Shown one piece after another: positions 3,056 to 43,965 of a DNA stretch of 64,000 bases. Numbering within the stretch: position 1 is the stretch's first letter; every line of letters begins with the position of its first letter. A program made the translations under genes and the position numbers. The notes below the pieces were generated by a model. That model had not been told where the DNA came from. It made no database searches and worked only from the letters and a program-made list of their open reading frames with translations. This DNA is from a virus (lineage: Duplodnaviria; Caudoviricetes), in IMG/VR virus record IMGVR_UViG_3300022407_004352, positions 1 to 64,000 of that record; one strand, given 5' to 3'.

Positions 3056-3861
3056 AAGAGATCATACTCAACGGGGGACATTTACTAAAGGGCATGTATG
3101 ATGCCCAGGTTAGTTTAATCATGGAGTATCAGAAACAAGGAATGGTACCATTATCTGATATGGATATTAACCTAAAGGATAGTCAGAGGTTTCTAAAAGA
3201 AACTATTGCTAATATCATAGAGGAGCTTAGTGAAGCAGATGAGGTCTATGGAAAGATCACCGAGCTTCTCTTTAAACCCGAATTAACCAATGAGTACCTA
3301 TCCGAACTATTGGAGAAATACTCAGAGGAGCTAGCAGATGTAATGCATTTTATGTTTGAGTTGATGCATTATTCAGGCATAGAACCCGAAGACATATCAG
3401 ACTACTACAAAGCTTTATGCCAGGAACAGAATCTATTGGCTATAATGACTAGTGATGGGCTAATTACAGGAATGAGATATGGCAGGCACTTAAATGCCTT
3501 TGAGAATCAACAGATTTGCCAAGCTAAGATAGTAGCCAGGAGACTAATCACTGAGGCTGAGTATGAGATAACTCATGTAAATGGGTTTGTAGTACATCCG
3601 GAAGTACAACTATATGTAACAGCTTACAATTGGATGATCACGAAGGAGCTAATGATGGGAGCTAACTTTCTTAAGAACAGAGCTTGGACTAAGGGAGAGA
3701 AACCTTTTGTAAACTTGCCCCAATTTCAAAGAAAGATTATGCAAGCTTTTACATTAATGATGGGCATGTTTGATCTTACGGGATGGGAGGTAAAAGGCAT
3801 TTATAAACACTACATGAGAAAGAATGGGAAGAACTTTGAACGACTAAAAAATAACTATTGA
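3052..3861 (+). CDS. all-alpha dimeric dUTPase/dCTPase (MazG fold, T4 gp56-like)
   Basis: IIEELSEADE, EELADVMHF, KNRAWTK and C-terminal KNGKNFERLKNNY motifs. Confidence 0.8.
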   Translation: MKEIILNGGHLLKGMYDAQVSLIMEYQKQGMVPLSDMDINLKDSQRFLKETIANIIEELSEADEVYGKITELLFKPELTNEYLSELLEKYSEELADVMHFMFELMHYSGIEPEDISDYYKALCQEQNLLAIMTSDGLITGMRYGRHLNAFENQQICQAKIVARRLITEAEYEITHVNGFVVHPEVQLYVTAYNWMITKELMMGANFLKNRAWTKGEKPFVNLPQFQRKIMQAFTLMMGMFDLTGWEVKGIYKHYMRKNGKNFERLKNNY

Positions 3862-4742
3862 TGAACCATACTATAACAGTTCTTAATTTCAAAGACCTCC
3901 AATCCGGTTGGCGGGGTATCAATGAGTTTCTATATCTTAAATGCCAAGCGATTGATGCTGTAGGAGGTGGGATGTATAGTACGGAGTATGTATCCTATAA
4001 CAACTATGTGATTATGCAGACCGCCCAGGTCGATCCGGAATTTAACTTTGGAAAAGTACTAGGGTATGCTAAAGCTAAATGGACTTCTTTGGCATCTAAC
4101 TATGTTAATAAGGATTACCTAGACCTAATCAAAAACACCATCCAACATAGACATGGAAAGGAAGCTAAATCCTATAACTATACCTTCCATTTCAGCAATC
4201 GTCATGGAATGGGTAAGGATTGCTTAATATCTCTAAATTTTACGAAGAGGGTAACTCAGAAGAAACCTGTAGTAGTTTTTAGCATAAGAACATCCGAGGT
4301 AACTAAGAGGCTATTGTTTGATTTCCTTTTGGTACAAAGGATCATCGAGTATGTATATGAGCATACAGATGTAGAGGTTCATCTCTTTGCACCCTCATTT
4401 TATATTACTGCTGAATCTTTTGTAATGTATAATAATGTAAAGGATGTAAGAAAGCTTTTAAAAAATTACCTGGAAAAGAATAGCCTAGAGATACACCAGT
4501 TTCAGGAAAAGGTACTACAAAGAATGGATGAGTACATGAATCACCCCGATCCAAATTCCATCATGTACAGAGTGCATAGAAGATCAGTGCTCCAAATCAG
4601 AAAGGACAAACAGGGTAATCCGGAATCCGGAGTAAAGGACATGTTTGCCAAAAACCTGTTATTATATGAGCCCAAAGAACTATACCCCAAGACTGTTATA
4701 ACAAAGAAAGCAATCAAAAAATTCAAATCTTTAAGCCTATGA
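3858..4742 (+). CDS. divergent thymidylate-synthase-fold protein
   Basis: KDCLISLNF...FSIRTSEVTKRLLFDF aligns with the TS PC...RSxDxxxGxxFN block, with Cys kept and Asp at the Asn177 position. Confidence 0.6.
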   Translation: MMNHTITVLNFKDLQSGWRGINEFLYLKCQAIDAVGGGMYSTEYVSYNNYVIMQTAQVDPEFNFGKVLGYAKAKWTSLASNYVNKDYLDLIKNTIQHRHGKEAKSYNYTFHFSNRHGMGKDCLISLNFTKRVTQKKPVVVFSIRTSEVTKRLLFDFLLVQRIIEYVYEHTDVEVHLFAPSFYITAESFVMYNNVKDVRKLLKNYLEKNSLEIHQFQEKVLQRMDEYMNHPDPNSIMYRVHRRSVLQIRKDKQGNPESGVKDMFAKNLLLYEPKELYPKTVITKKAIKKFKSLSL

Positions 4743-5524
4743 TGAAGATATTTAATTCTATTAGTAATGTTATCGTACATGCCAAGGATACTCTATTTAA
4801 TAGCCCTGAAATAGAACTCGGAAAATGGCAAGGGACTACTAAATTTAGTGGGGAGATTATAAAGGAACACATCAATTATATATTCCAAGTACCCATGCCC
4901 TTATCCGTGGCAGTACTTCAGAGAGAAACTCAGGCAGATCAACCCTGGGCTGAAGAGCATTTCCAAGAGAGAGTTAGTGGGATACCTATGAACCCCGGAG
5001 TAAGCTATATGATATGGCCTTACAATAACTTCAAGGATGGGGATGAGTTTCTTACCTCCGGAAGATTCTCACATACTTACATGGAAAGATTCTGGCCAAA
5101 AAATGCTGGGGGTGGACAGCATGGAGATCGGGAATATCATAATACTCCTAACCATGGAATCTGGTATGAGTACGGGGACCTTGCGGATGTAGTTAAGCAA
5201 CTCAAGGAAAACCCTGCAACAAGGCAAGCATATCTTCCAATATGGCATCCGGAAGATACCGGAGCAAAGCATGGACAAAGAGTTCCTTGTACGATAGGAT
5301 ACCATTTCCTAATCCGGGGTAATTGTCTGCACTTAAATTACTATATCCGGAGCTGCGATTTTTATAGGCATTTTAAAAATGATATATACTTAACCATCCG
5401 ATTAGCACAAAATATAAAGGAAGCTATTGGACTGGACATTTCACTGGGTTTTCTAACCATGCACATAGGCTCCTTTCATATGTTTAAAAATGATACCCAC
5501 TTAATCAAAAAGGGTAACTATTAA
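4739..5524 (+). CDS. TS-family dCMP hydroxymethylase/methylase-like enzyme
   Basis: TRQAY, VPCTIGYHF, RSCDFYRHFKND (cf. T4 gp42 RSNDVVFGFRND), GSFHMF. Confidence 0.8.
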   Translation: MMKIFNSISNVIVHAKDTLFNSPEIELGKWQGTTKFSGEIIKEHINYIFQVPMPLSVAVLQRETQADQPWAEEHFQERVSGIPMNPGVSYMIWPYNNFKDGDEFLTSGRFSHTYMERFWPKNAGGGQHGDREYHNTPNHGIWYEYGDLADVVKQLKENPATRQAYLPIWHPEDTGAKHGQRVPCTIGYHFLIRGNCLHLNYYIRSCDFYRHFKNDIYLTIRLAQNIKEAIGLDISLGFLTMHIGSFHMFKNDTHLIKKGNY

Positions 5525-5982: not shown

Positions 5983-8146
5983 TAACTTTGCAATAGTAAA
6001 GACGATCAAGGGGGTAGAGAGGATACTAGAGTACTGCAGAAAGACTGGGTATATGTCCTTTGACTTTGAAACAAAGGCTAAAGGAGGTCCCCAAAGTGAT
6101 CAGGATGATTGTACTATAATAGGCATAGCTTTCCAACCCGGATTTGCATATTCCATACCCCTATATCATAAAGAATCTAACCTAGACCCGGAAGAGATAT
6201 TTCCATTATTGGGTAAACTATGGGAAGATACCAGTATAGTAAAGGTAGCTTGGAATGCCAAGCATGAATACAAATGGGTTAGACGATATGGTTATGATAT
6301 TCGGGGTGTATATTTGGATGGTATGCTTGCCAAGTATGTACTGGATGAAGAGCCCCCCAATGATCTGAAATCCATGGTTGCAAGGTTTATACCTGAATTT
6401 GCTGGGTATGATGATGAGGTGGATAAGCTGGTCAAGAAACATAAAGGCTGGGAACATGTTCCCCTTACTCCATTATCGGAGTACTGTTGTATGGATGCAG
6501 ACTTTACATTACGACTCTCAATCTTCTTTGAGAAGCTACTACTAAGACCCAAGAATCCAAAGTTCTACCCTCTATTCCGGAATATGGCCATGATGCAGAG
6601 CAGAACCTTTGCAGAGTCCGAACTGATGGGTGTAAAGATTGATGTAAAGTATCTGAATAGAATAGAGCAACAGACCCGGGGTAGGATAGAAAAGAATCTA
6701 AAGAAGTTATTGGCAATAAAGGTCATAAGAAGATACCAAGAGTGGAGAATCACAGACCATATCCGTAAACTAATCGAATCCACGAATGCTGAAATCTATG
6801 CTATAAAGACTGGTAAGAAAGAGGCTAAGAATGAAGCATCCAAAGCCAGGATGATAAACCAGAGAGAGGAAAAGATTAGTAGGTATATAGCGGGGGAGCT
6901 AGTAACCAAGAAGGAAGTAGTAGATGAGGTGAACTTTAACTCACCCGACCAGATGGTGCAATTATTATTCACATCACCCAAGGGATTTCGATTCAAGATT
7001 GTAAAATACACAAAGGATAAGGAAACAAAGAGACCCACTACTAAGCCATCCACGGATGAGGAAGTTTTATTGGAATTAAAAACCAAGGATAAGACTGGGT
7101 TTATACAGAAGCTATTGGATCATAGGGAACTATCAAAACTCCACTCCACTTATATGGTATCCATACAGGAGAGAGTAACACCCGACCATAAAATTCATGG
7201 GGAGTTTAAAATCCACGGAACTGTTACAGGTAGACCCTCATCTGCTAATCCAAATCTACAAAACATACCCCGTACTACTACCTCATCCTTAATCAAGGGT
7301 ATGTATATACCCCCACCGGGGCATCTGCTACTAGAAGTGGACTATGGGCAAGCTGAGTTAAGGGTAGCAGCTGAGCTATCCAAAGACCCGGATATGATTG
7401 AGATTTTCAAGAAAGGTTACAATGTGCACGTAGCAACTGCTGCTAAGATCAATCGGAAATTTGAGAAGTATGAAGAGATTAAAGGTATATTATCAGACCC
7501 TAAACATCCTGACCATCTCTTTTGGGAAAAACAAAAGAAGAGAGGTAAGGTATTAAACTTTTCTATTCTATATTTACAATCGGATGAGATGACCGCAGAC
7601 CAGATGGGTGTTTCAGTAGAAGAAGCTATTGAATTCAAACAAGAATGGTTCAATCAATTTCCTTTGATAAAGAAGTGGATGAGTGCTCAGGAAAGAAGGG
7701 TAAGGAAGTATGGATATGTAGAAGGTTTGTTTGGAAGGAGAAGAAGATTACCAGATATTTATTCTGACATAAAAGGCTTTAGAAACAAAGCCATAAGGGA
7801 TTCCATTAATGCTCCTATACAGGGATGCTCATCGGACTTCACTCAATTTTCTACAGTGATCATAAGGGATCATATAAATAGAGGTACCATAAAGCTAACT
7901 GACTCTCTGCAATGGAGATACCAAGCATATACGGTACACGATTCGATCGGATATTATGTACAGCCCCAGTTTATCCATAAAGCAGTACCTCTTATAACGG
8001 AGATATGTTCCAATCCGGATACCCAAAAATACTTTAACTTCGAGATGCAACATGTGAAGATGAAGGTATCCGCTGAGATGGGTAAATCATGGGGGTCACT
8101 AGAGGATTATTCCTACGATAAAGACTATTCACTATGGCTAAAATAA
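5975..8146 (+). CDS. polA: DNA polymerase family A with 3'-5' exonuclease
   Basis: ExoI FDFET, GTVTGRPSS..PNLQNIP, motif A DYGQAELR, motif B RGKVLNF..Y, motif C VHDS; ATG 5975 preferred to TTG 5957. Confidence 0.95.
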   Translation: MDSNFAIVKTIKGVERILEYCRKTGYMSFDFETKAKGGPQSDQDDCTIIGIAFQPGFAYSIPLYHKESNLDPEEIFPLLGKLWEDTSIVKVAWNAKHEYKWVRRYGYDIRGVYLDGMLAKYVLDEEPPNDLKSMVARFIPEFAGYDDEVDKLVKKHKGWEHVPLTPLSEYCCMDADFTLRLSIFFEKLLLRPKNPKFYPLFRNMAMMQSRTFAESELMGVKIDVKYLNRIEQQTRGRIEKNLKKLLAIKVIRRYQEWRITDHIRKLIESTNAEIYAIKTGKKEAKNEASKARMINQREEKISRYIAGELVTKKEVVDEVNFNSPDQMVQLLFTSPKGFRFKIVKYTKDKETKRPTTKPSTDEEVLLELKTKDKTGFIQKLLDHRELSKLHSTYMVSIQERVTPDHKIHGEFKIHGTVTGRPSSANPNLQNIPRTTTSSLIKGMYIPPPGHLLLEVDYGQAELRVAAELSKDPDMIEIFKKGYNVHVATAAKINRKFEKYEEIKGILSDPKHPDHLFWEKQKKRGKVLNFSILYLQSDEMTADQMGVSVEEAIEFKQEWFNQFPLIKKWMSAQERRVRKYGYVEGLFGRRRRLPDIYSDIKGFRNKAIRDSINAPIQGCSSDFTQFSTVIIRDHINRGTIKLTDSLQWRYQAYTVHDSIGYYVQPQFIHKAVPLITEICSNPDTQKYFNFEMQHVKMKVSAEMGKSWGSLEDYSYDKDYSLWLK

Positions 8147-18903: not shown

Positions 18904-19329
<426 letters not shown>

Positions 19330-35295: not shown

Positions 35296-35351
35296 CTATG
35301 TGTTATATAAGAGGCCACAACCCTCTTATCTCTTTAAAAAAAAACATAAAT

Positions 35352-36182
35352 ATGAGTACAATAAGAATACCAAGACCAACAGGACTAACTAATATGATTA
35401 AGAATCATAGTAGGATAAAGGATGAGAGAATGAGAGGAAAGGAACTAAAGAGAATAAAGGAGCATGTAATAAACCAATACATCAGAGAAGGCTTTAGACT
35501 CAACGGAGAGACTAAGGACATAGGAGACATAGGAAGGTATTTAGGTGAAACCGAGAAATGGGTATTACAAAGGATACAGAGATTTGGAACACTATTGGAA
35601 GGAAAGGACCAAGATGGGCTCAGTAAGGCATTAAAAGCGATGTCTTTACAGGCTTCTATGGCAAGCCGAAGTATTATTATGGCCCAGGCAACCTACCTGT
35701 TTGAGAGTCAATCAGTTGAGTACCAGAAATCAAACCCGGGAAAGAAGAATGGCTATGTACCTTTCCTTACATCAGAGGTAAATCGAAGCCTTGCCAACCT
35801 AATTGCAAGCGATAATACCTTACTCAACCTACTGAAGATTGTTGCCCCACCTGCCAAGAACAGCCCTACCATACAAATTAACAACCAACAGGCTAACCTA
35901 GGTAATCAGCCCTCTACGGAGACCCTAATCAATATCAATCAGGCCGTACAGCTAATAGACAAAGGCCGTGAGGCTACCTTACTAGAGGATGATGGGCTCC
36001 AAAATAGGCTCTTGGCTCAGCACATTACCCCTGATGTACCTGAAGTAATAGCTACGCAGCAAAGAGGGTTTAATGCCACTAATGAGGCAGCAGGCCTTAA
36101 AAAGAAGCCTAAAAAGGTACAATTACATGAGATTCGCTCTGAATCGGATGGAGAGATCATCAACCCTGAAATCATAGAATAG
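35352..36182 (+). CDS. possible terminase small subunit
   Basis: HTH-like DIGDIGRYLGETEKWVLQRI, helical middle, PTIQINNQQ strand, disordered tail; next to GC-rich repeats; ATG 35352. Confidence 0.4.
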   Translation: MSTIRIPRPTGLTNMIKNHSRIKDERMRGKELKRIKEHVINQYIREGFRLNGETKDIGDIGRYLGETEKWVLQRIQRFGTLLEGKDQDGLSKALKAMSLQASMASRSIIMAQATYLFESQSVEYQKSNPGKKNGYVPFLTSEVNRSLANLIASDNTLLNLLKIVAPPAKNSPTIQINNQQANLGNQPSTETLININQAVQLIDKGREATLLEDDGLQNRLLAQHITPDVPEVIATQQRGFNATNEAAGLKKKPKKVQLHEIRSESDGEIINPEIIE

Positions 36183-36210: not shown

Positions 36211-36340
36211 TTTTGCGCGCTTATAGGTCAGGTATGGCCAAAGGGCCCAATTTGGCCAGCTGGTTGCGAAGTTCGGTATGGCCATTTTAGGTATGGCCAG
36301 CCGGCCGGACCCGCCACGAGGAGAGGGTATGGCAGAAAGC
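36211..36340. repeat. GC-rich block A: TTGCGCGC plus four GGTATGGC repeats
   Basis: GGTATGGC at 36231, 36275, 36290, 36326; extra TGGCC at 36253. Confidence 0.8.
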
Positions 36341-36388
36341 CATGAATTTTAGGGTACAAAGCCCCTTGATTGAGATATGCATTATATC

Positions 36389-36419
36389 TATATTTGATCC
36401 ATAATTAAAAATCAATCAA
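36389..36419 (+). promoter_or_regulatory. promoter-leader cassette TATATTTG + CATAATTAAAAATCAATCA
   Basis: TAnnTTTG match; leader identical to 34334-34352. Confidence 0.65.
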
Positions 36420-36665
36420 ATGAAAAAGAATGACCTTATTACCCAATCTCTCATAGATGATCTAAGAGAGAAGATTCAGAAAACCCCGGATTTAGGAATC
36501 CGACAGACCCACCTCAATATTCTTGAGGTTATGGAGGCATGCATTGGAAATTCATTAGATTCCCTTTTGAATACCCTCTTTGATGAATGGGATGAAGATG
36601 AGGCAATGTATGGCTTCTCTCCAAAAGAATTCCTGATATTTGATACCATGTACCTAAGAGATTAA
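36420..36665 (+). CDS. acidic hypothetical protein
   Basis: Behind promoter cassette. Confidence 0.6.
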   Translation: MKKNDLITQSLIDDLREKIQKTPDLGIRQTHLNILEVMEACIGNSLDSLLNTLFDEWDEDEAMYGFSPKEFLIFDTMYLRD

Positions 36666-36670
36666 AAGCC

Positions 36671-36967
36671 ATGAAAAAGATAAAAGACCATGATATTGAG
36701 CTCATCGGCATTAAGATCAAAGCCCGATTAGAAGAAGCCCGAACCAGCAACCATCATTTTATTGCCTTCTATGAAAGGATGCAGAAAATTCAGAATGAGG
36801 CTGAGTCCCTAATAACCCATTGGAAAGAAAACCCTGTGGACCATGAGGGAATCCTGAATGATAGCCTCAATACCCTCATCGAAGAGATGCTGGACATACC
36901 GGACCTGAATCATGCAGACCTTGCCCAATATCTTATACACTACTACACCATAACCGAAAAGGCATGA
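36671..36967 (+). CDS. hypothetical protein
   Basis: Followed by terminator. Confidence 0.6.
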   Translation: MKKIKDHDIELIGIKIKARLEEARTSNHHFIAFYERMQKIQNEAESLITHWKENPVDHEGILNDSLNTLIEEMLDIPDLNHADLAQYLIHYYTITEKA

Positions 36968-37002: not shown

Positions 37003-37030
37003 CTTGTGTTATTAGCCTATTAATATATCA

Positions 37031-37170
37031 ATTTGCGCGCCTAACACGACCCATAGGGTATTGGGCCCACACTGGCCGACTGGTCTGGCATGGCCGAGAC
37101 TGGCCTTGATCCACCGAAATTGGCGCGCTTGGTCGAGAGGTTTTAGGCACCAGGCCAGAGGGGCAGGAAA
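37031..37170. repeat. GC-rich block B: TTGCGCGC plus phased TGG(CC) repeats
   Basis: TGG at 37073, 37081, 37086, 37091, 37101, 37121, 37130. Confidence 0.7.
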
Positions 37171-37241
37171 TTTGCCTCGAAAATAGATTTTTGAAATTCG
37201 GATATTTTTCCGATATTTGATCAAATAAAAAAATCAATCAA

Positions 37242-37421
37242 ATGAAAAATTCAAAAAAATCATTTTATCCGGAATCATTAAATTCGGATCAATTAGAAAT
37301 TCTTATGCATATCAATGCAAAGGAAGAGAAAAAAGAAAATCTGATCTATGCATGGATCGGATTTATCCTATTTGAAATATGCATTATTGCCCCTATCTTT
37401 TATCTTTATTATCTTGCATAA
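37242..37421 (+). CDS. 59-aa protein with C-terminal TM helix (not in ORF track)
   Basis: MKNSKKSFYPESLNSDQLEILMHINAKEEKKENLIYAWIGFILFEICIIAPIFYLYYLA behind AAAAATCAATCAAATG leader; no Thr or Val. Confidence 0.7.
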   Translation: MKNSKKSFYPESLNSDQLEILMHINAKEEKKENLIYAWIGFILFEICIIAPIFYLYYLA

Positions 37422-37448
37422 ATCGGATTAATATCCGATATTTGAATT

Positions 37449-37865
37449 ATGAAAAAATCAATCAAAAAATCAGAAGAGATTCAAGGAATCAAATCTGAAA
37501 TCAAAATCAAAAAATCTCAAAAATTGGATTCTGCAAATCTTTCAAAGATCAAAGAAGAATCTAAAGGATCAGAAGAGAAAAAAGGGAATCTTTATATTGG
37601 ATTTTCTTCCTTATCTTCAAATGATCAGAAAAAAGAGAGATCAAAATTAAGGAGAAAATTGGAAAATTTCAGAAAGGAGATTTTAGGGAAAGATCGGAAA
37701 AAGGAAGAGAAGGAAGAGGGATTAAAATCTTTCATTCAATTCTATAAAAAGAATTGGAAGATTCAAGATTTTAAATTTGAAAATTTCTCTCATCAAAAGG
37801 ATGAAGATTTTAAATCCGATTGGATCGAAATTCTTTCCAATGCAAAGAAATCCTTAGAGAAATAA
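37449..37865 (+). CDS. highly charged K/E/S-rich protein
   Basis: 138 aa, no Thr or Val; followed by strong terminator. Confidence 0.75.
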   Translation: MKKSIKKSEEIQGIKSEIKIKKSQKLDSANLSKIKEESKGSEEKKGNLYIGFSSLSSNDQKKERSKLRRKLENFRKEILGKDRKKEEKEEGLKSFIQFYKKNWKIQDFKFENFSHQKDEDFKSDWIEILSNAKKSLEK

Positions 37866-37882
37866 ATAAGGATTGAAAAATG

Positions 37883-37918
37883 AAATCCGATAGATTTATC
37901 CTCTATCGGATTTTTTTT
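37883..37918 (+). terminator. intrinsic terminator
   Basis: AAATCCGATAGA-TTTATCC-TCTATCGGATTT then T run. Confidence 0.85.
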
Positions 37919-37947
37919 ATCCTTTCCATCCTACACACCCTATCCTG

Positions 37948-38018
37948 TTTCTACTGCCATAAAATTTATGTAAAGCCCCCTATAAGCACCCCGGGTTTTT
38001 CTACTGCCATAAAATTTA
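37948..38018. repeat. 21-bp direct repeat x2, 50-bp period
   Basis: TTTCTACTGCCATAAAATTTA at 37948 and 37998. Confidence 0.9.
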
Positions 38019-41113: not shown

Positions 41114-41595
41114 TTTAATAATTTTTCAATAACCCGAATAGAAGATTGATAGGCTCTTATATTTACCTCAAGAGTTGATTTATCTCTTACAAGATGCATC
41201 ACCTCGGTATTCAGCTCCCCAATCTTCTCCTGTTGACTTTCCAACTCTTGCCGTAAGTTTAGAATGGTCTCATCTTGTTGGTAGATTGTTTCTTGTCTTC
41301 TACGCAGAACATCACTCATGGATTCTTCCTGTTCTTTCACATGGACGGCCTTGTAATCCTCAGCATACTTTAGACGTACTGACTCTTCTGCTTCAGGCAG
41401 GTCAACAACAAGTATGGGGGTCTGCGGTTTGTTAATCTCAAAATCTTTCGGGAGCATACTTAACAAACCATGTAACTCTGCGGCTAGATGAGATGCATCC
41501 TCTATACTAATCTTAGTATAGAGTGTTTCCATCTCGGTTAGAAATGTAATATAGATTGCATTGTTTTCGAGTTTTAGTTGAATGTTCTTGCTCAT
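41110..41595 (-). CDS. coiled-coil hypothetical protein
   Basis: C-terminal heptads. Confidence 0.55.
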   Translation of the reverse strand: MSKNIQLKLENNAIYITFLTEMETLYTKISIEDASHLAAELHGLLSMLPKDFEINKPQTPILVVDLPEAEESVRLKYAEDYKAVHVKEQEESMSDVLRRRQETIYQQDETILNLRQELESQQEKIGELNTEVMHLVRDKSTLEVNIRAYQSSIRVIEKLLK

Positions 41596-42254
41596 GTGTT
41601 TGGGTTTATATGGTTTAACTTAGCTAATTTCTGGTATTTATCTAACCATTCGGGTTTTGATCCGTAGTTCCAATGGCATATATCTTTTTTATAGGATGCA
41701 TAGTAAAGCCGATAGTTTTCTACCGGGTCATCACTGAATTGACATTCTATGGGCATTACAGAGGGGGGCTTAGTAAGAAAATCGTTAGGGAAATCCTTTT
41801 CAGTTAAAGGCCAAGGATTCCCCAGTTTATCTCTTTGAAGATTGGGTTCACATAGACGAATTACTTCAAGGCTCTTATGTATCTTCTCATACCTAGCCAT
41901 ATACTCATCTACTAAGAAATAACCCAATCTTAGTAACCAGATATAGTTTTGAAGGGATTTTCTAGCCCATAAAACGGAAGGGTGGTTTGGATGAGTAATA
42001 AGGTATATTCTTGGACCTCCACCGGTTTCCCCATGAAGTACATGTGCATAGCTTTTCCACTTCTTGTTCTTTTCCGGAGTTAAACCAAAATCCTTATCTA
42101 GTCCATCCAGTGAGTATACACCCGGATACCCCCGTTTAATTCTTACAACAGTGGATAGAATCTGAGCAGTTTCCAATACCATTTTGACTACATGTTTATC
42201 ACTATGGTATTGGGCTGCTTTATTAGCTTCTCGGTCTAGGAAAAAGATATTCAT
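41592..42254 (-). CDS. pyrimidine-dimer DNA glycosylase / endonuclease V-like protein
   Basis: MNIFFLD...HSDKHVVKMVLETAQILST, HPNHPSVLWAR, Y.RY.K.HKS. Confidence 0.85.
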   Translation of the reverse strand: MNIFFLDREANKAAQYHSDKHVVKMVLETAQILSTVVRIKRGYPGVYSLDGLDKDFGLTPEKNKKWKSYAHVLHGETGGGPRIYLITHPNHPSVLWARKSLQNYIWLLRLGYFLVDEYMARYEKIHKSLEVIRLCEPNLQRDKLGNPWPLTEKDFPNDFLTKPPSVMPIECQFSDDPVENYRLYYASYKKDICHWNYGSKPEWLDKYQKLAKLNHINPNT

Positions 42255-42990: not shown

Positions 42991-43965
42991 ATGAATTTAA
43001 GAGTACTGGGTGTCTGCGGGGGTAATGGTGTTATATTACACCCTTTCAAAGATAATTTAATAGCAAACATTGAACCCCGGGCAATCTTTCATACCCCTGG
43101 CCAAATTCAGTGGCAATTAAATTTTCCGGGTGTTCCCATGAGAAAAGAACTACAACCCTACTCGGATATTGACATTATCATAGGAGCTCCGGACTGTGGC
43201 CATTCCTCTGTCCTATCTTATTCTAGGGCTAAGAAGTTATCTGATCCGAAAGATAATAAGAGTTTCAATCTATTCCTAGCAAGTATCATTAAATACAGGC
43301 CACTAATTTTTATGATGGAGAATCTACCAAAGATGCTAGACATGGTAGACCTTGAGAAAATACTTCCGGAATATAGACTACAAATAAAGGTAGAGTCAGT
43401 TTCACTATGGGGTAACTCTCAAAAATCCCGAGTTAGGTTGGTAATAGTGGGAATCCGGAAAGATACTGGGTTAAAAATTAAGTGGCCAAAAAAGCCAGAT
43501 ATATTCTCTGAAGTGAGAGAGTTACTTGAAGGATTAGGACCCGAAGAGATACCATCACTTTGCCATGTTAGAGAGTCTGATGAATCCTTTGTACCTCTTT
43601 ACACGAAGACTGCTCGAAGGATAACAGTTAAAAAAGCTAGAGAAATTTGGCAAACGGACTTTGTGGATAGTAGAAGATGGAAAGTACCCCATACTAAGAT
43701 GGTTAACCAACCCGGAGTTTATCGGTTATTTTGGAGTGATTTACCATTAACTGTAAGAAAGCAGAGTCGGCAATTTGATCCCGAAGGATATATGCTTACT
43801 CCACGGGATATTGCTAGGATTCAAGGTATTCCGGATGAGTTTGAACTATGGTACGAGCCTAAACGACACTTATATTGTATAAATAAAGCCCGAGCTACTT
43901 GTGCAAAAACTCCACCCTATGAAATCGGGGAATGGTTTAAAAGGCAAATATCTAAACTTCATTGA
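42991..43965 (+). CDS. C5-cytosine DNA methyltransferase (divergent)
   Basis: I LGVCGGNG, IV GAPDC, VI FMMENL, VIII QKSRVRLVIVG, IX LTPRDIARIQGIPDEF. Confidence 0.8.
   Translation: MNLRVLGVCGGNGVILHPFKDNLIANIEPRAIFHTPGQIQWQLNFPGVPMRKELQPYSDIDIIIGAPDCGHSSVLSYSRAKKLSDPKDNKSFNLFLASIIKYRPLIFMMENLPKMLDMVDLEKILPEYRLQIKVESVSLWGNSQKSRVRLVIVGIRKDTGLKIKWPKKPDIFSEVRELLEGLGPEEIPSLCHVRESDESFVPLYTKTARRITVKKAREIWQTDFVDSRRWKVPHTKMVNQPGVYRLFWSDLPLTVRKQSRQFDPEGYMLTPRDIARIQGIPDEFELWYEPKRHLYCINKARATCAKTPPYEIGEWFKRQISKLH

Follow-up and report, generated by a model that had tools for sequence, protein, structure and literature searches.

A phage transcription unit kept free of the AC/GT duplex step from promoter to terminator in diverged lineages

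How can a group of phage genes, together with the DNA that controls them, dispense entirely with one step of the DNA duplex, and what would hold such a composition in place? The question is raised by positions 37150 to 37933 of a Caudoviricetes genome (IMG/VR record IMGVR_UViG_3300022407_004352), a single contig of 79,600 nucleotides (nt) whose first 64 kb form the window analysed here. The ends of the contig overlap by about 127 nt, which indicates a circular assembly. In these 784 nt, hereafter the island, neither AC nor its reverse complement GT occurs on either strand (0 AC and 0 GT counted); the nearest AC steps lie at 37148-49 on the left and at 37933, where the next one starts, on the right. 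The base composition of the island predicts 78 AC+GT, and 2000 shuffles gave a mean of 78 (S. D. 6.9) and a minimum of 52. A sequence-only reading of the window had described this gap, had predicted several dozen AC+GT from a hand count elsewhere, and had stated that both encoded proteins lack Thr and Val; the exact count, the expectation and the translations of the two open reading frames (ORFs), of 59 and 138 aa, agree with it on all three points.

A dinucleotide scan showed the island to be unique in length across the 79.6-kb genome. The second-longest AC/GT-free run is 218 nt (19066-19284) and consists of a GAA/GAG repeat, the remaining runs do not exceed 95 nt, and no comparable gap was found for any other duplex step. 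The island is also without AGC/GCT and CGC/GCG, and 7 of its 11 GC steps are in TGCA; its GC content is 28%, as against 39% for the genome. An assembly or low-complexity artefact is ruled out by recurrence in independent data and by the conserved protein family that is encoded: the independent Logan assembly of the source run has the identical island sequence at 235x depth, and contigs of nine or more other samples, made with other assemblers (Logan, ENA, JGI, IMG/VR), show the AC/GT-free feature again. As for the 218-nt GAA/GAG run, it is the poly-Glu tract of a 141-aa ORF (18904-19329), and the Logan contig of the source run breaks exactly, and only, at this repeat.

The island is best explained as one complete, insulated immediate-early transcription unit, comprising promoter(s), two ORFs, a terminator and a further 15-20 bp or so. 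A putative promoter of Bacteroidota style (TTTG ... TATTTG; 37190-37219, plus strand) contains a palindrome, TCGGA-N6-TCCGA, at 37198-37213. ORF1 (37242-37421, plus strand; 59 aa) has a hydrophobic C-terminal segment and appears to encode a small membrane protein. A second promoter-like region (37412-37444, plus strand) carries the palindrome ATCGGA-N4-TCCGAT at 37422-37439, and its TATTTG ends 4 nt ahead of the ATG of ORF2, so that the ORF2 mRNA would be nearly leaderless; this promoter/palindrome element (TTTGCAGA..TCCGATATTTGA) is present also in three contigs of relatives (L001, L002, L020). ORF2 (37449-37865, plus strand; 138 aa) is the central protein of the unit. It is followed by an intrinsic terminator (37882-37921, plus strand) with a 13-pair stem (hairpin 37882-37914) and a T-run, beyond which the purge, as the absence of these steps is called here, extends about 14 nt further; L001, L002 and L010 have kept the hairpin.

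The borders are as sharp as had been claimed. On the left stands an unpurged GC-rich block of TGGCC / GACTGGCC repeats (37030-37149) that ends in GGTTTT and has a density of about 44 AC[A/G/T]+[A/C/T]GT per kb. A second, homologous module with the same repeats lies at about 36211-36400, both modules precede a promoter-like element with the identical leader AAAATCAATCAAATGAAAAA (at 36408 and 37230), and relatives have a similar GC-rich module before the unit. On the right (37933-38018) there is an ACACAC..GT element and then two copies of the 21-bp repeat TTTCTACTGCCATAAAATTTA, at 37948 and 37998. The ACAC(C)GTGT palindrome ACACCGTGT stands directly after the island also in L018 (10487-10500) and L014 (about 1203-1212). 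This palindrome consists solely of steps that are forbidden inside the island, and it may be a protein-binding or packaging site; two TTTCTACTGCCAT repeats come after it in this phage and in L001.

Is the gap an accident of one genome? The AC/GT-free unit is kept in at least nine diverged lineages, and in the relatives the purged stretch begins about 20-100 nt ahead of the promoter and stops some 20 nt beyond the terminator. It measures 523 nt in L001 and 648 nt in L004 (both with 0 AC/GT), 783 nt in L010/L011/L012 (one AC), more than 606 nt in L015, 522 nt in L016, 770 nt in L018 (which is the IMG/VR genome G001) and 562 nt in L020, a genome where AC/GT is especially frequent; in L013 it occupies the entire 725-nt contig, and the 538-nt unit of L002 contains two AC. 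Of about 500 aligned positions, any two purged units differ at 137-215. A third of the possible substitutions in such sequence would create AC or GT, and the probability of finding none in the absence of constraint is therefore less than 10-24 for every purged pair. It had been asked whether an AC/GT-free block is conserved while the sequence diverges, and these comparisons answer that it is.

The state of the unit varies within the ORF2 family. Homologues of ORF2 on contigs from other samples are 55-73% identical to it, and a profile search added 77 further members; 84 phage proteins were examined, and at least that number exist. In 19 of the 84 there is no Thr or Val at all, while the others contain 3-17% Thr+Val (most of them 5-17%), with low in-between values in P0081 (2%) and in two fusion proteins, P0006 and P0083 (2-3%). 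Members that contain Thr and Val come with normal DNA in the syntenic unit (L017, L019 = G003, L030 = G002, L035 = G004, L037/L039 = G005). The observation named beforehand as fatal, that orthologues have Thr/Val and AC/GT at normal rates, thus holds for distant orthologues (L017, L019, L030, L035, L037) but not for the 19 members without any, and the AC/GT-free trait is a real one that is specific to certain lineages. Intermediate states are seen in two units: L014, in which ORF1 and ORF2 are fused, has 14 AC/GT and L026 has 8, mostly as ACC or GGT. In both, AGC/GCT and AC[A/G/T] are already lost, and it is ACC/GGT that remain. TpA is depleted as well (observed/expected 0.3-0.7), in purged and unpurged ORF2 units alike, and this is a separate feature of the ORF2 gene.

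The rule that governs the purge may be read from the pooled units. The purged units of this phage, L001, L004, L010, L013, L015, L016, L018 and L020 (5,922 nt) contain AC+GT once, AGC never, GCT once and CGC+GCG never, and 82 of their 93 GC steps are in TGCA. The unpurged units (3,042 nt) contain 214 AC+GT, 30 AGC, 13 GCT and 21 CGC+GCG, with 23 of 73 GC in TGCA, and no other duplex step is purged in them. In the purged units GC occurs in approximately the expected number, 88% of it as TGCA, and there is no avoidance of purine-C as such. The rule is that NAC and VGC are forbidden (N, any base; V, A, C or G), not purine-C, and that C follows a purine almost only in TGCA. Every Ala codon in the purged units is GCA (or GCC) and is preceded by a codon ending in T; the confinement of purine-C to TGCA therefore constrains even the dipeptides.

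The forbidden words are not equally disfavoured. Relative to synonymous-codon resampling, ACT and AGT fall together on the sense strand, from 1.13/1.05 through 0.51/0.52 and 0.23/0.24 to 0, and ACA/TGT and ACG/CGT also fall in parallel. From the late genes to the genes beside the island, the share of Thr codons that are ACC increases from 21% to 100%, that of NAC codons followed by C from 28% to 69%, and that of Val codons preceded by G from 22% to 49%. These three shifts at the synonymous level show ACC and its complement GGT to be the tolerated forms, and a hierarchy is shown in which AC[A/G/T] and AGC are removed first and ACC/GGT last.

Does this composition concern the RNA or the DNA? An endoribonuclease of the ChpBK/MazF type (cutting at AC[A/G/U]) or of the MqsR type (at GCU) could in principle select for messages without its target. 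AC survives in the partly purged units only as ACC, matching the ACD specificity reported for ChpBK (D, any base but C), GCU is absent, and the block ends at the terminator. But GT, AGC and CGC are equally absent from the sense strand, Val codons shift to a context preceded by G, and the purge takes in 18-100 nt of promoter DNA ahead of the -33 element as well as about 20 bp past the 3' end of the RNA. Strand symmetry largely refutes avoidance at the RNA level, which we regard as very improbable. Taken together, the strand symmetry and the purged promoter DNA indicate that the purge acts on duplex DNA, and with the purged DNA past the RNA end they rule out a cause purely at the level of RNA or codons. 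An explanation by tRNAs or codons likewise fails, since the purge extends to codon junctions and to non-coding DNA.

It might still be asked whether the island is a footprint of mutation, such as would be left by a transcription-coupled cytosine deaminase preferring purine-C. Its lower GC content and its limitation to a transcription unit agree with targeted hypermutation, and AGC and AC resemble the WRC hot spots of AID-type deaminases. The replaced amino acids do not: Thr has given way to Ser, Asn or Lys, which require transversions, in 19 cases and to Ile or Met in 9, and Val mostly to Ile, a pattern that speaks for selection rather than for C-to-T mutation. Moreover, ACC is enriched 2-3 fold as a refuge and not just spared, TGC is spared although it is a WRC site, and the protein is conserved with a confident fold. 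Hypermutation is therefore highly unlikely. Two other sources of selection do not fit. Generalist avoidance of the many palindromic restriction sites of the form GT..AC is rejected because ACC/GGT are specifically tolerated, and a DNA-damaging small molecule (bleomycin at G-pyrimidine, neocarzinostatin at AGC/AGT) would leave the restriction to one unit unexplained. The facts require strong, continuing, per-site selection on duplex DNA which is confined to one unit, graded, and switched on or off between related phages. The strong DNA-level selection proposed from the sequence alone is upheld by the conservation in at least nine lineages, the strand symmetry, the inclusion of non-coding DNA, the dependence on place and the lack of a C-to-T footprint.

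The dependence on place is most clearly seen in ORF1. Where it lies inside the unit (this phage, L010, L013) it is purged, for example from MKT... to MKN...; where its homologue precedes the GC-rich block (L001, L002, L004), Thr, Val and ordinary AC/GT are present. What determines the purge is therefore where a gene lies, not which protein it encodes. In all purged lineages it includes promoter-upstream DNA, reaching 18-100 nt beyond the -33 element on the upstream side, and some 12-22 bp that follow the terminator, and its left edge hugs the promoter whether ORF1 is included or not. The GC-rich spacers between purged units, conserved GACTGGCC repeats included, have a normal density of AC[A/G/T], and these unpurged spacers less than 100 bp from the island indicate that the purge tracks transcription units and not all early-entering DNA. 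The island edges are sharp on both sides in G001 and L020, and each of the two purged complete genomes contains a single island; in every lineage the purged unit is the one encoding ORF2.

To the left of the island a graded depletion extends over 13 kb in this phage only (24000-36967, plus strand), with AC[A/G/T] / [A/C/T]GT falling and ACC/GGT rising toward the island. The density of AC[A/G/T]+[A/C/T]GT per kb is about 65-70 at 0-20 kb, in the 50s at 25-28 kb, about 45 at 28-32 kb, 30-40 at 32-35 kb, about 20 at 36-37 kb, 0 in the island and 80 directly to its right. When amino-acid composition is controlled, the observed/expected ratios toward the island are 0.89, 0.77, 0.73, 0.51, 0.31 and 0 (Spearman rho 0.66, p 3 × 10-9, 65 genes). 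The gradient is uneven, with a nearly normal 294-aa gene at 35298-36182 and normal GC-rich spacers. It ends in the adjoining unit (36420-36967, plus strand; ORFs of 81 and 98 aa), which is partly purged: ACC accounts for 20 of its 26 AC and for all 10 Thr codons, and GT occurs just 5 times. The long gradient is absent in G001 and L020, and in L010, L018 and L001/L002 only the adjacent unit is depleted.

A gradient of this kind, one-sided and directed to the right edge, is best accounted for if the island forms the leading end of the genome, which enters the cell ahead of the rest and waits there exposed, the GC-rich repeats being an injection stop and ORF1/ORF2 pre-early genes. The sharp right edge lies beside the conserved palindrome and the repeats, and the island is about 7 kb upstream of the terminase gene, in the orientation expected of the last-packaged end. 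There is also precedent: the first-step-transfer region of phage T5 is without EcoRI sites, the leading end of T7 and T3 carries gene 0.3, and the first 850 bp of T7 enter first. As in the island, a local stretch with very early genes lacks a nuclease target that the remainder of the genome contains, and one new site would be costly. The motif there is 6 bp, however, as against 2-3 bp here, where two amino acids are lost, and the purged block here is a single transcription unit of 0.5-0.8 kb in a circular assembly. The island does not coincide with an end in any of six long contigs from relatives. The gp32-, UvsX- and gp46/47-like genes and the T4-type N-terminal domain of the terminase suggest headful packaging, with no fixed ends, and neither the left edge at the promoter, regardless of ORF1, nor the lack of a gradient in G001 and L020 is in accord with first-step transfer. 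The proposal that the segment lies at the physical end and enters first finds no support in the circular assemblies and the relatives' contigs, the unpurged spacers speak against it, and first-step transfer appears distinctly improbable.

Why, then, is it always this unit? ORF2 is basic (38 K+R, 25 D+E). Its AlphaFold model has a Lys-rich disordered N-terminus and a confident helical bundle at residues 50-138, with a predicted local distance difference test (pLDDT) score above 90 over residues 55-138, and a basic helix is conserved. Searches of Pfam and PHROGs returned nothing for ORF1, ORF2 or their neighbours, and comparison of the ORF2 model with the PDB (Foldseek, VIA wide), BFVD and the ESM Atlas gave only uncharacterised phage proteins and generic helical bundles (Z ≤ 5.8). 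IMG/VR searched with ORF2 and with the 294-aa upstream protein gave no matches, a terminator-sequence pattern gave three chance matches in metagenome contigs, unrelated to the locus, and the sole similarity to a GenBank phage covers 126 nt of Chryseobacterium phage MA9V-3, a phage without an island. An ORF1-like membrane segment is naturally fused to an ORF2-like domain in P0006 (L014 507-1124) and P0083, proteins of 205-206 aa; such fusions suggest, at the level of sequence, that ORF1 and ORF2 may act together at the membrane.

The tree of the ORF2 family is weakly resolved, with the members free of Thr and Val scattered among normal ones within one half of it. Well-supported branches imply at least two changes of state and parsimony eight, and the state differs between close relatives (P0061 and P0045; P0081 and P0009). 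The purged state is thereby shown to have been gained or lost repeatedly within the family. Such switching between close relatives, and the fact that a purged unit always encodes ORF2, would be expected if ORF2 itself read AC/GT-containing DNA, to shut it off or to recruit a nuclease, and its own unit had to lack the target. This gives the best account of why it is always the same gene; the basic character, Lys-rich disordered tail and conserved basic helix of ORF2 are compatible with it, as is the partial purging of neighbouring early units but not of late genes. DNA binding by a protein with no fold match is purely hypothetical, though, the natural fusions to membrane ORF1 fit a genome-wide DNA binder poorly, and the convergent gene block directly right of the island is not depleted. 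We therefore consider such self-immunity rather unlikely.

The remaining gene content bears on which agent might read the DNA. To the left of the island are some 18 kb of small plus-strand ORFs and, farther left, a T4-like replication and nucleotide module with genes for a helicase, a nucleoside triphosphate (NTP) pyrophosphohydrolase, two proteins like thymidylate synthase (TS), deoxycytidylate (dCMP) deaminase, PolA, deoxynucleoside monophosphate (dNMP) kinase, gp32, UvsX/RecA, FEN and Mre11/Rad50. To the right is the convergent minus-strand block, followed by a C5-DNA-methylase-like gene, an amidase, a T4-type large terminase and structural genes. Within the convergent block, an ORF at 41592-42254 (minus strand) shows a weak match to pyrimidine-dimer DNA glycosylase, the family of T4 endonuclease V.

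The TS homologue at 4739-5524 has as its best PDB match the N229D mutant of Lactobacillus casei TS, and it also matches CMP hydroxymethylase. It carries Asp at the position that determines dUMP/dCMP specificity (RSCDFYRHFKND), as do its counterparts in five related phage genomes (G001 and four unpurged ones; L021, L040-L044), and it adjoins the second, divergent TS-like ORF (3858-4742), the NTP pyrophosphohydrolase, the dCMP deaminase and the dNMP kinase. The methylase-like gene (42991-43965; L010 14098-15186, L019 14193-15224, L020 10425-11438) always lies between the minus-strand block and the amidase/terminase and has an unusual catalytic-loop motif, P[DTN]CGHSS (also in the form PDCGHSS), in place of PCQ. 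With a dCMP-type TS, an NTP pyrophosphohydrolase, a dNMP kinase and a C5-methylase-like gene, modified cytosine is plausible, and the TS homologue and its neighbours probably constitute a cytosine-modification pathway. In Pfam or PHROGs scans that covered about 70 proteins, with many small ORFs either outside their range or of no family, no tRNA-guanine transglycosylase (TGT)/DpdA, preQ0-pathway or DNA kinase family was found. In the early region of L010, an MjaI restriction-endonuclease family gene (6864-7385) stands where the density of AC[A/G/T] is locally high, and it therefore looks recently acquired.

Post-replicative, context-specific hypermodification by the phage itself, at AC/GT, AGC/GCT and the like, offers a further explanation: the modified bases of the incoming genome would hinder the unmodified host RNA polymerase in recognising promoters or in elongating, the first gene would be kept unmodifiable, and ORF2 would enable the rest. 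The purge does resemble a footprint of RNA polymerase, its limits being the upstream promoter edge and a point some 20 bp beyond the terminator, with the spacers unpurged, nucleotide-modification genes are present, and a composite of a 2-mer and 3-mers is like known hypermodification specificities. Thus, 5-hydroxymethyldeoxyuridine kinases modify T in TG/TC (PMC6449724), and the preQ0 system of phage CAjan modifies G in GA and GGC (PMC7544227). Those studies describe where modification is placed and not a modification-free gene, however, and neither DpdA nor 5-HMUDK genes, nor any other context-specific hypermodification enzyme, appeared among the proteins scanned. The known modification genes are found in unpurged genomes also, and in G001 and L020 further early units that have this type of promoter are unpurged. 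T4 and SPO1, moreover, are transcribed by host polymerase without such zones. On balance a modification-free zone of this kind is unlikely.

The explanation which we prefer, tentatively and at less than even probability, is that the unit is a cassette kept without the sites of a DNA reader or cutter with a short motif, so that ORF2 is always made. Purifying selection would keep the unit free of AC/GT, AGC/GCT and CGC/GCG, while some activity would read such motifs on the DNA of this phage group and cut or block the carriers. The hypothetical reader would most likely be a modification-dependent (Type IV-like) nuclease of the host, which is favoured because a modified base plus one neighbour is the usual specificity of such enzymes. 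The site-free cassette would stay intact and transcribable even when all other parts of the genome are being bound or cut; the product made first would be ORF2, with the membrane protein ORF1 as its anchor or helper, and presumably a counter-measure or a function needed before all else. Lineages whose hosts lack the activity would relax to normal composition. The two agents proposed in the sequence-only reading, a host defence with very short specificity and a context-specific phage modification, remain the leading candidates. The two purged complete genomes, which are also closest relatives, alone have in common several small early ORFs and a 1020-aa tail-fibre-like protein (DUF2793; genome 70411-73473, L009 6411-9470); its G001 homologue is 55% identical, and the four unpurged genomes have none. 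The tail-fibre gene weakly hints at an effect of the host, confounded by kinship.

Several points weigh against the target-free cassette. A nuclease cutting at AC would also cut the other 99% or so of the genome, and an extra assumption is therefore needed, be it cooperating infections, a roadblock in place of cleavage, or entry of the DNA in two steps. A plain purine-C reader such as McrBC of Escherichia coli would leave the tolerance of TGCA unexplained. Unpurged genomes also contain the dCMP-type TS and the methylase-like gene, so that no phage gene co-varies cleanly with the purge, and the long one-sided gradient of this phage is not predicted. Finally, ORF2 is basic and of no known fold, and in this differs from the acidic DNA-mimic anti-restriction proteins.

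Among known systems, Type IV restriction comes close to the proposed activity. Type IV enzymes typically need a modified base and one specific base (PMC3874153). The dinucleotide specificity is alike, a dCMP-type TS homologue is present here as in phages with hydroxymethylcytosine, and a small early inhibitor is proposed. McrBC recognises purine-methylcytosine, and T4 Arn and IPI* are phage counter-measures to Type IV restriction; GC is nevertheless tolerated in TGCA here, and ORF2 is basic, unlike Arn or Ocr. The ACA-less mRNAs that escape interferases of the MazF family are alike in that a whole gene is recoded without a 3-nt target and codon choice is restricted, but the island avoids the reverse complements equally and includes untranscribed promoter DNA, the target thus being DNA. 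In the suppression of CpG and UpA in RNA viruses and in the avoidance of palindromes by phages, a host sensor likewise selects on very short words. Such suppression is genome-wide and partial, whereas the purge is local, total, extended from promoter to terminator, and switched between close lineages. Literature searches found no earlier description of local dinucleotide-free phage genes, in agreement with the initial remark that no system of this form had been described. The nearest ideas, the site-free leading DNA of T5/T7 and the ACA-less mRNAs, both lack a total promoter-to-terminator purge of a 2-bp duplex step that takes two amino acids out of the proteins and recurs across lineages, and a purge that is local, total and bounded by the unit is not accounted for by any described system of defence, counter-defence or modification. 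Whether it should be termed a 'stealth cassette', that is, a hitherto undescribed phage strategy of recoding a whole unit, at the price of two amino acids and many dipeptides, to evade a DNA-surveillance or DNA-marking activity directed at NAC and VGC, is a proposal that we put forward only as a possibility of less than even probability.

If selection can clear a whole transcription unit of a 2-3 bp motif in many lineages, something in these phage-host systems reads DNA at that resolution, with a near-lethal effect per site. If the 'stealth cassette' is true, it implies a reader of ultra-short specificity in freshwater bacteria or in their phages; this reader might be a new kind of defence, or ORF2 might represent a new class of dinucleotide-reading DNA-binding proteins, and ORF1/ORF2 would have a new immediate-early function expressed under attack. 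The set of motifs (NAC and VGC forbidden, TGCA allowed, AC[A/G/T] avoided more than ACC) constitutes a fingerprint of specificity which can be matched to an enzyme, and the on/off pattern among close relatives is a natural comparative experiment. More generally, islands that are free of a k-mer and bounded by promoter and terminator may provide a way to find anti-defence genes together with the specificities of the defences. For this widespread freshwater group of T4-like phages, the finding suggests that ORF2, together with ORF1, is a key early protein.

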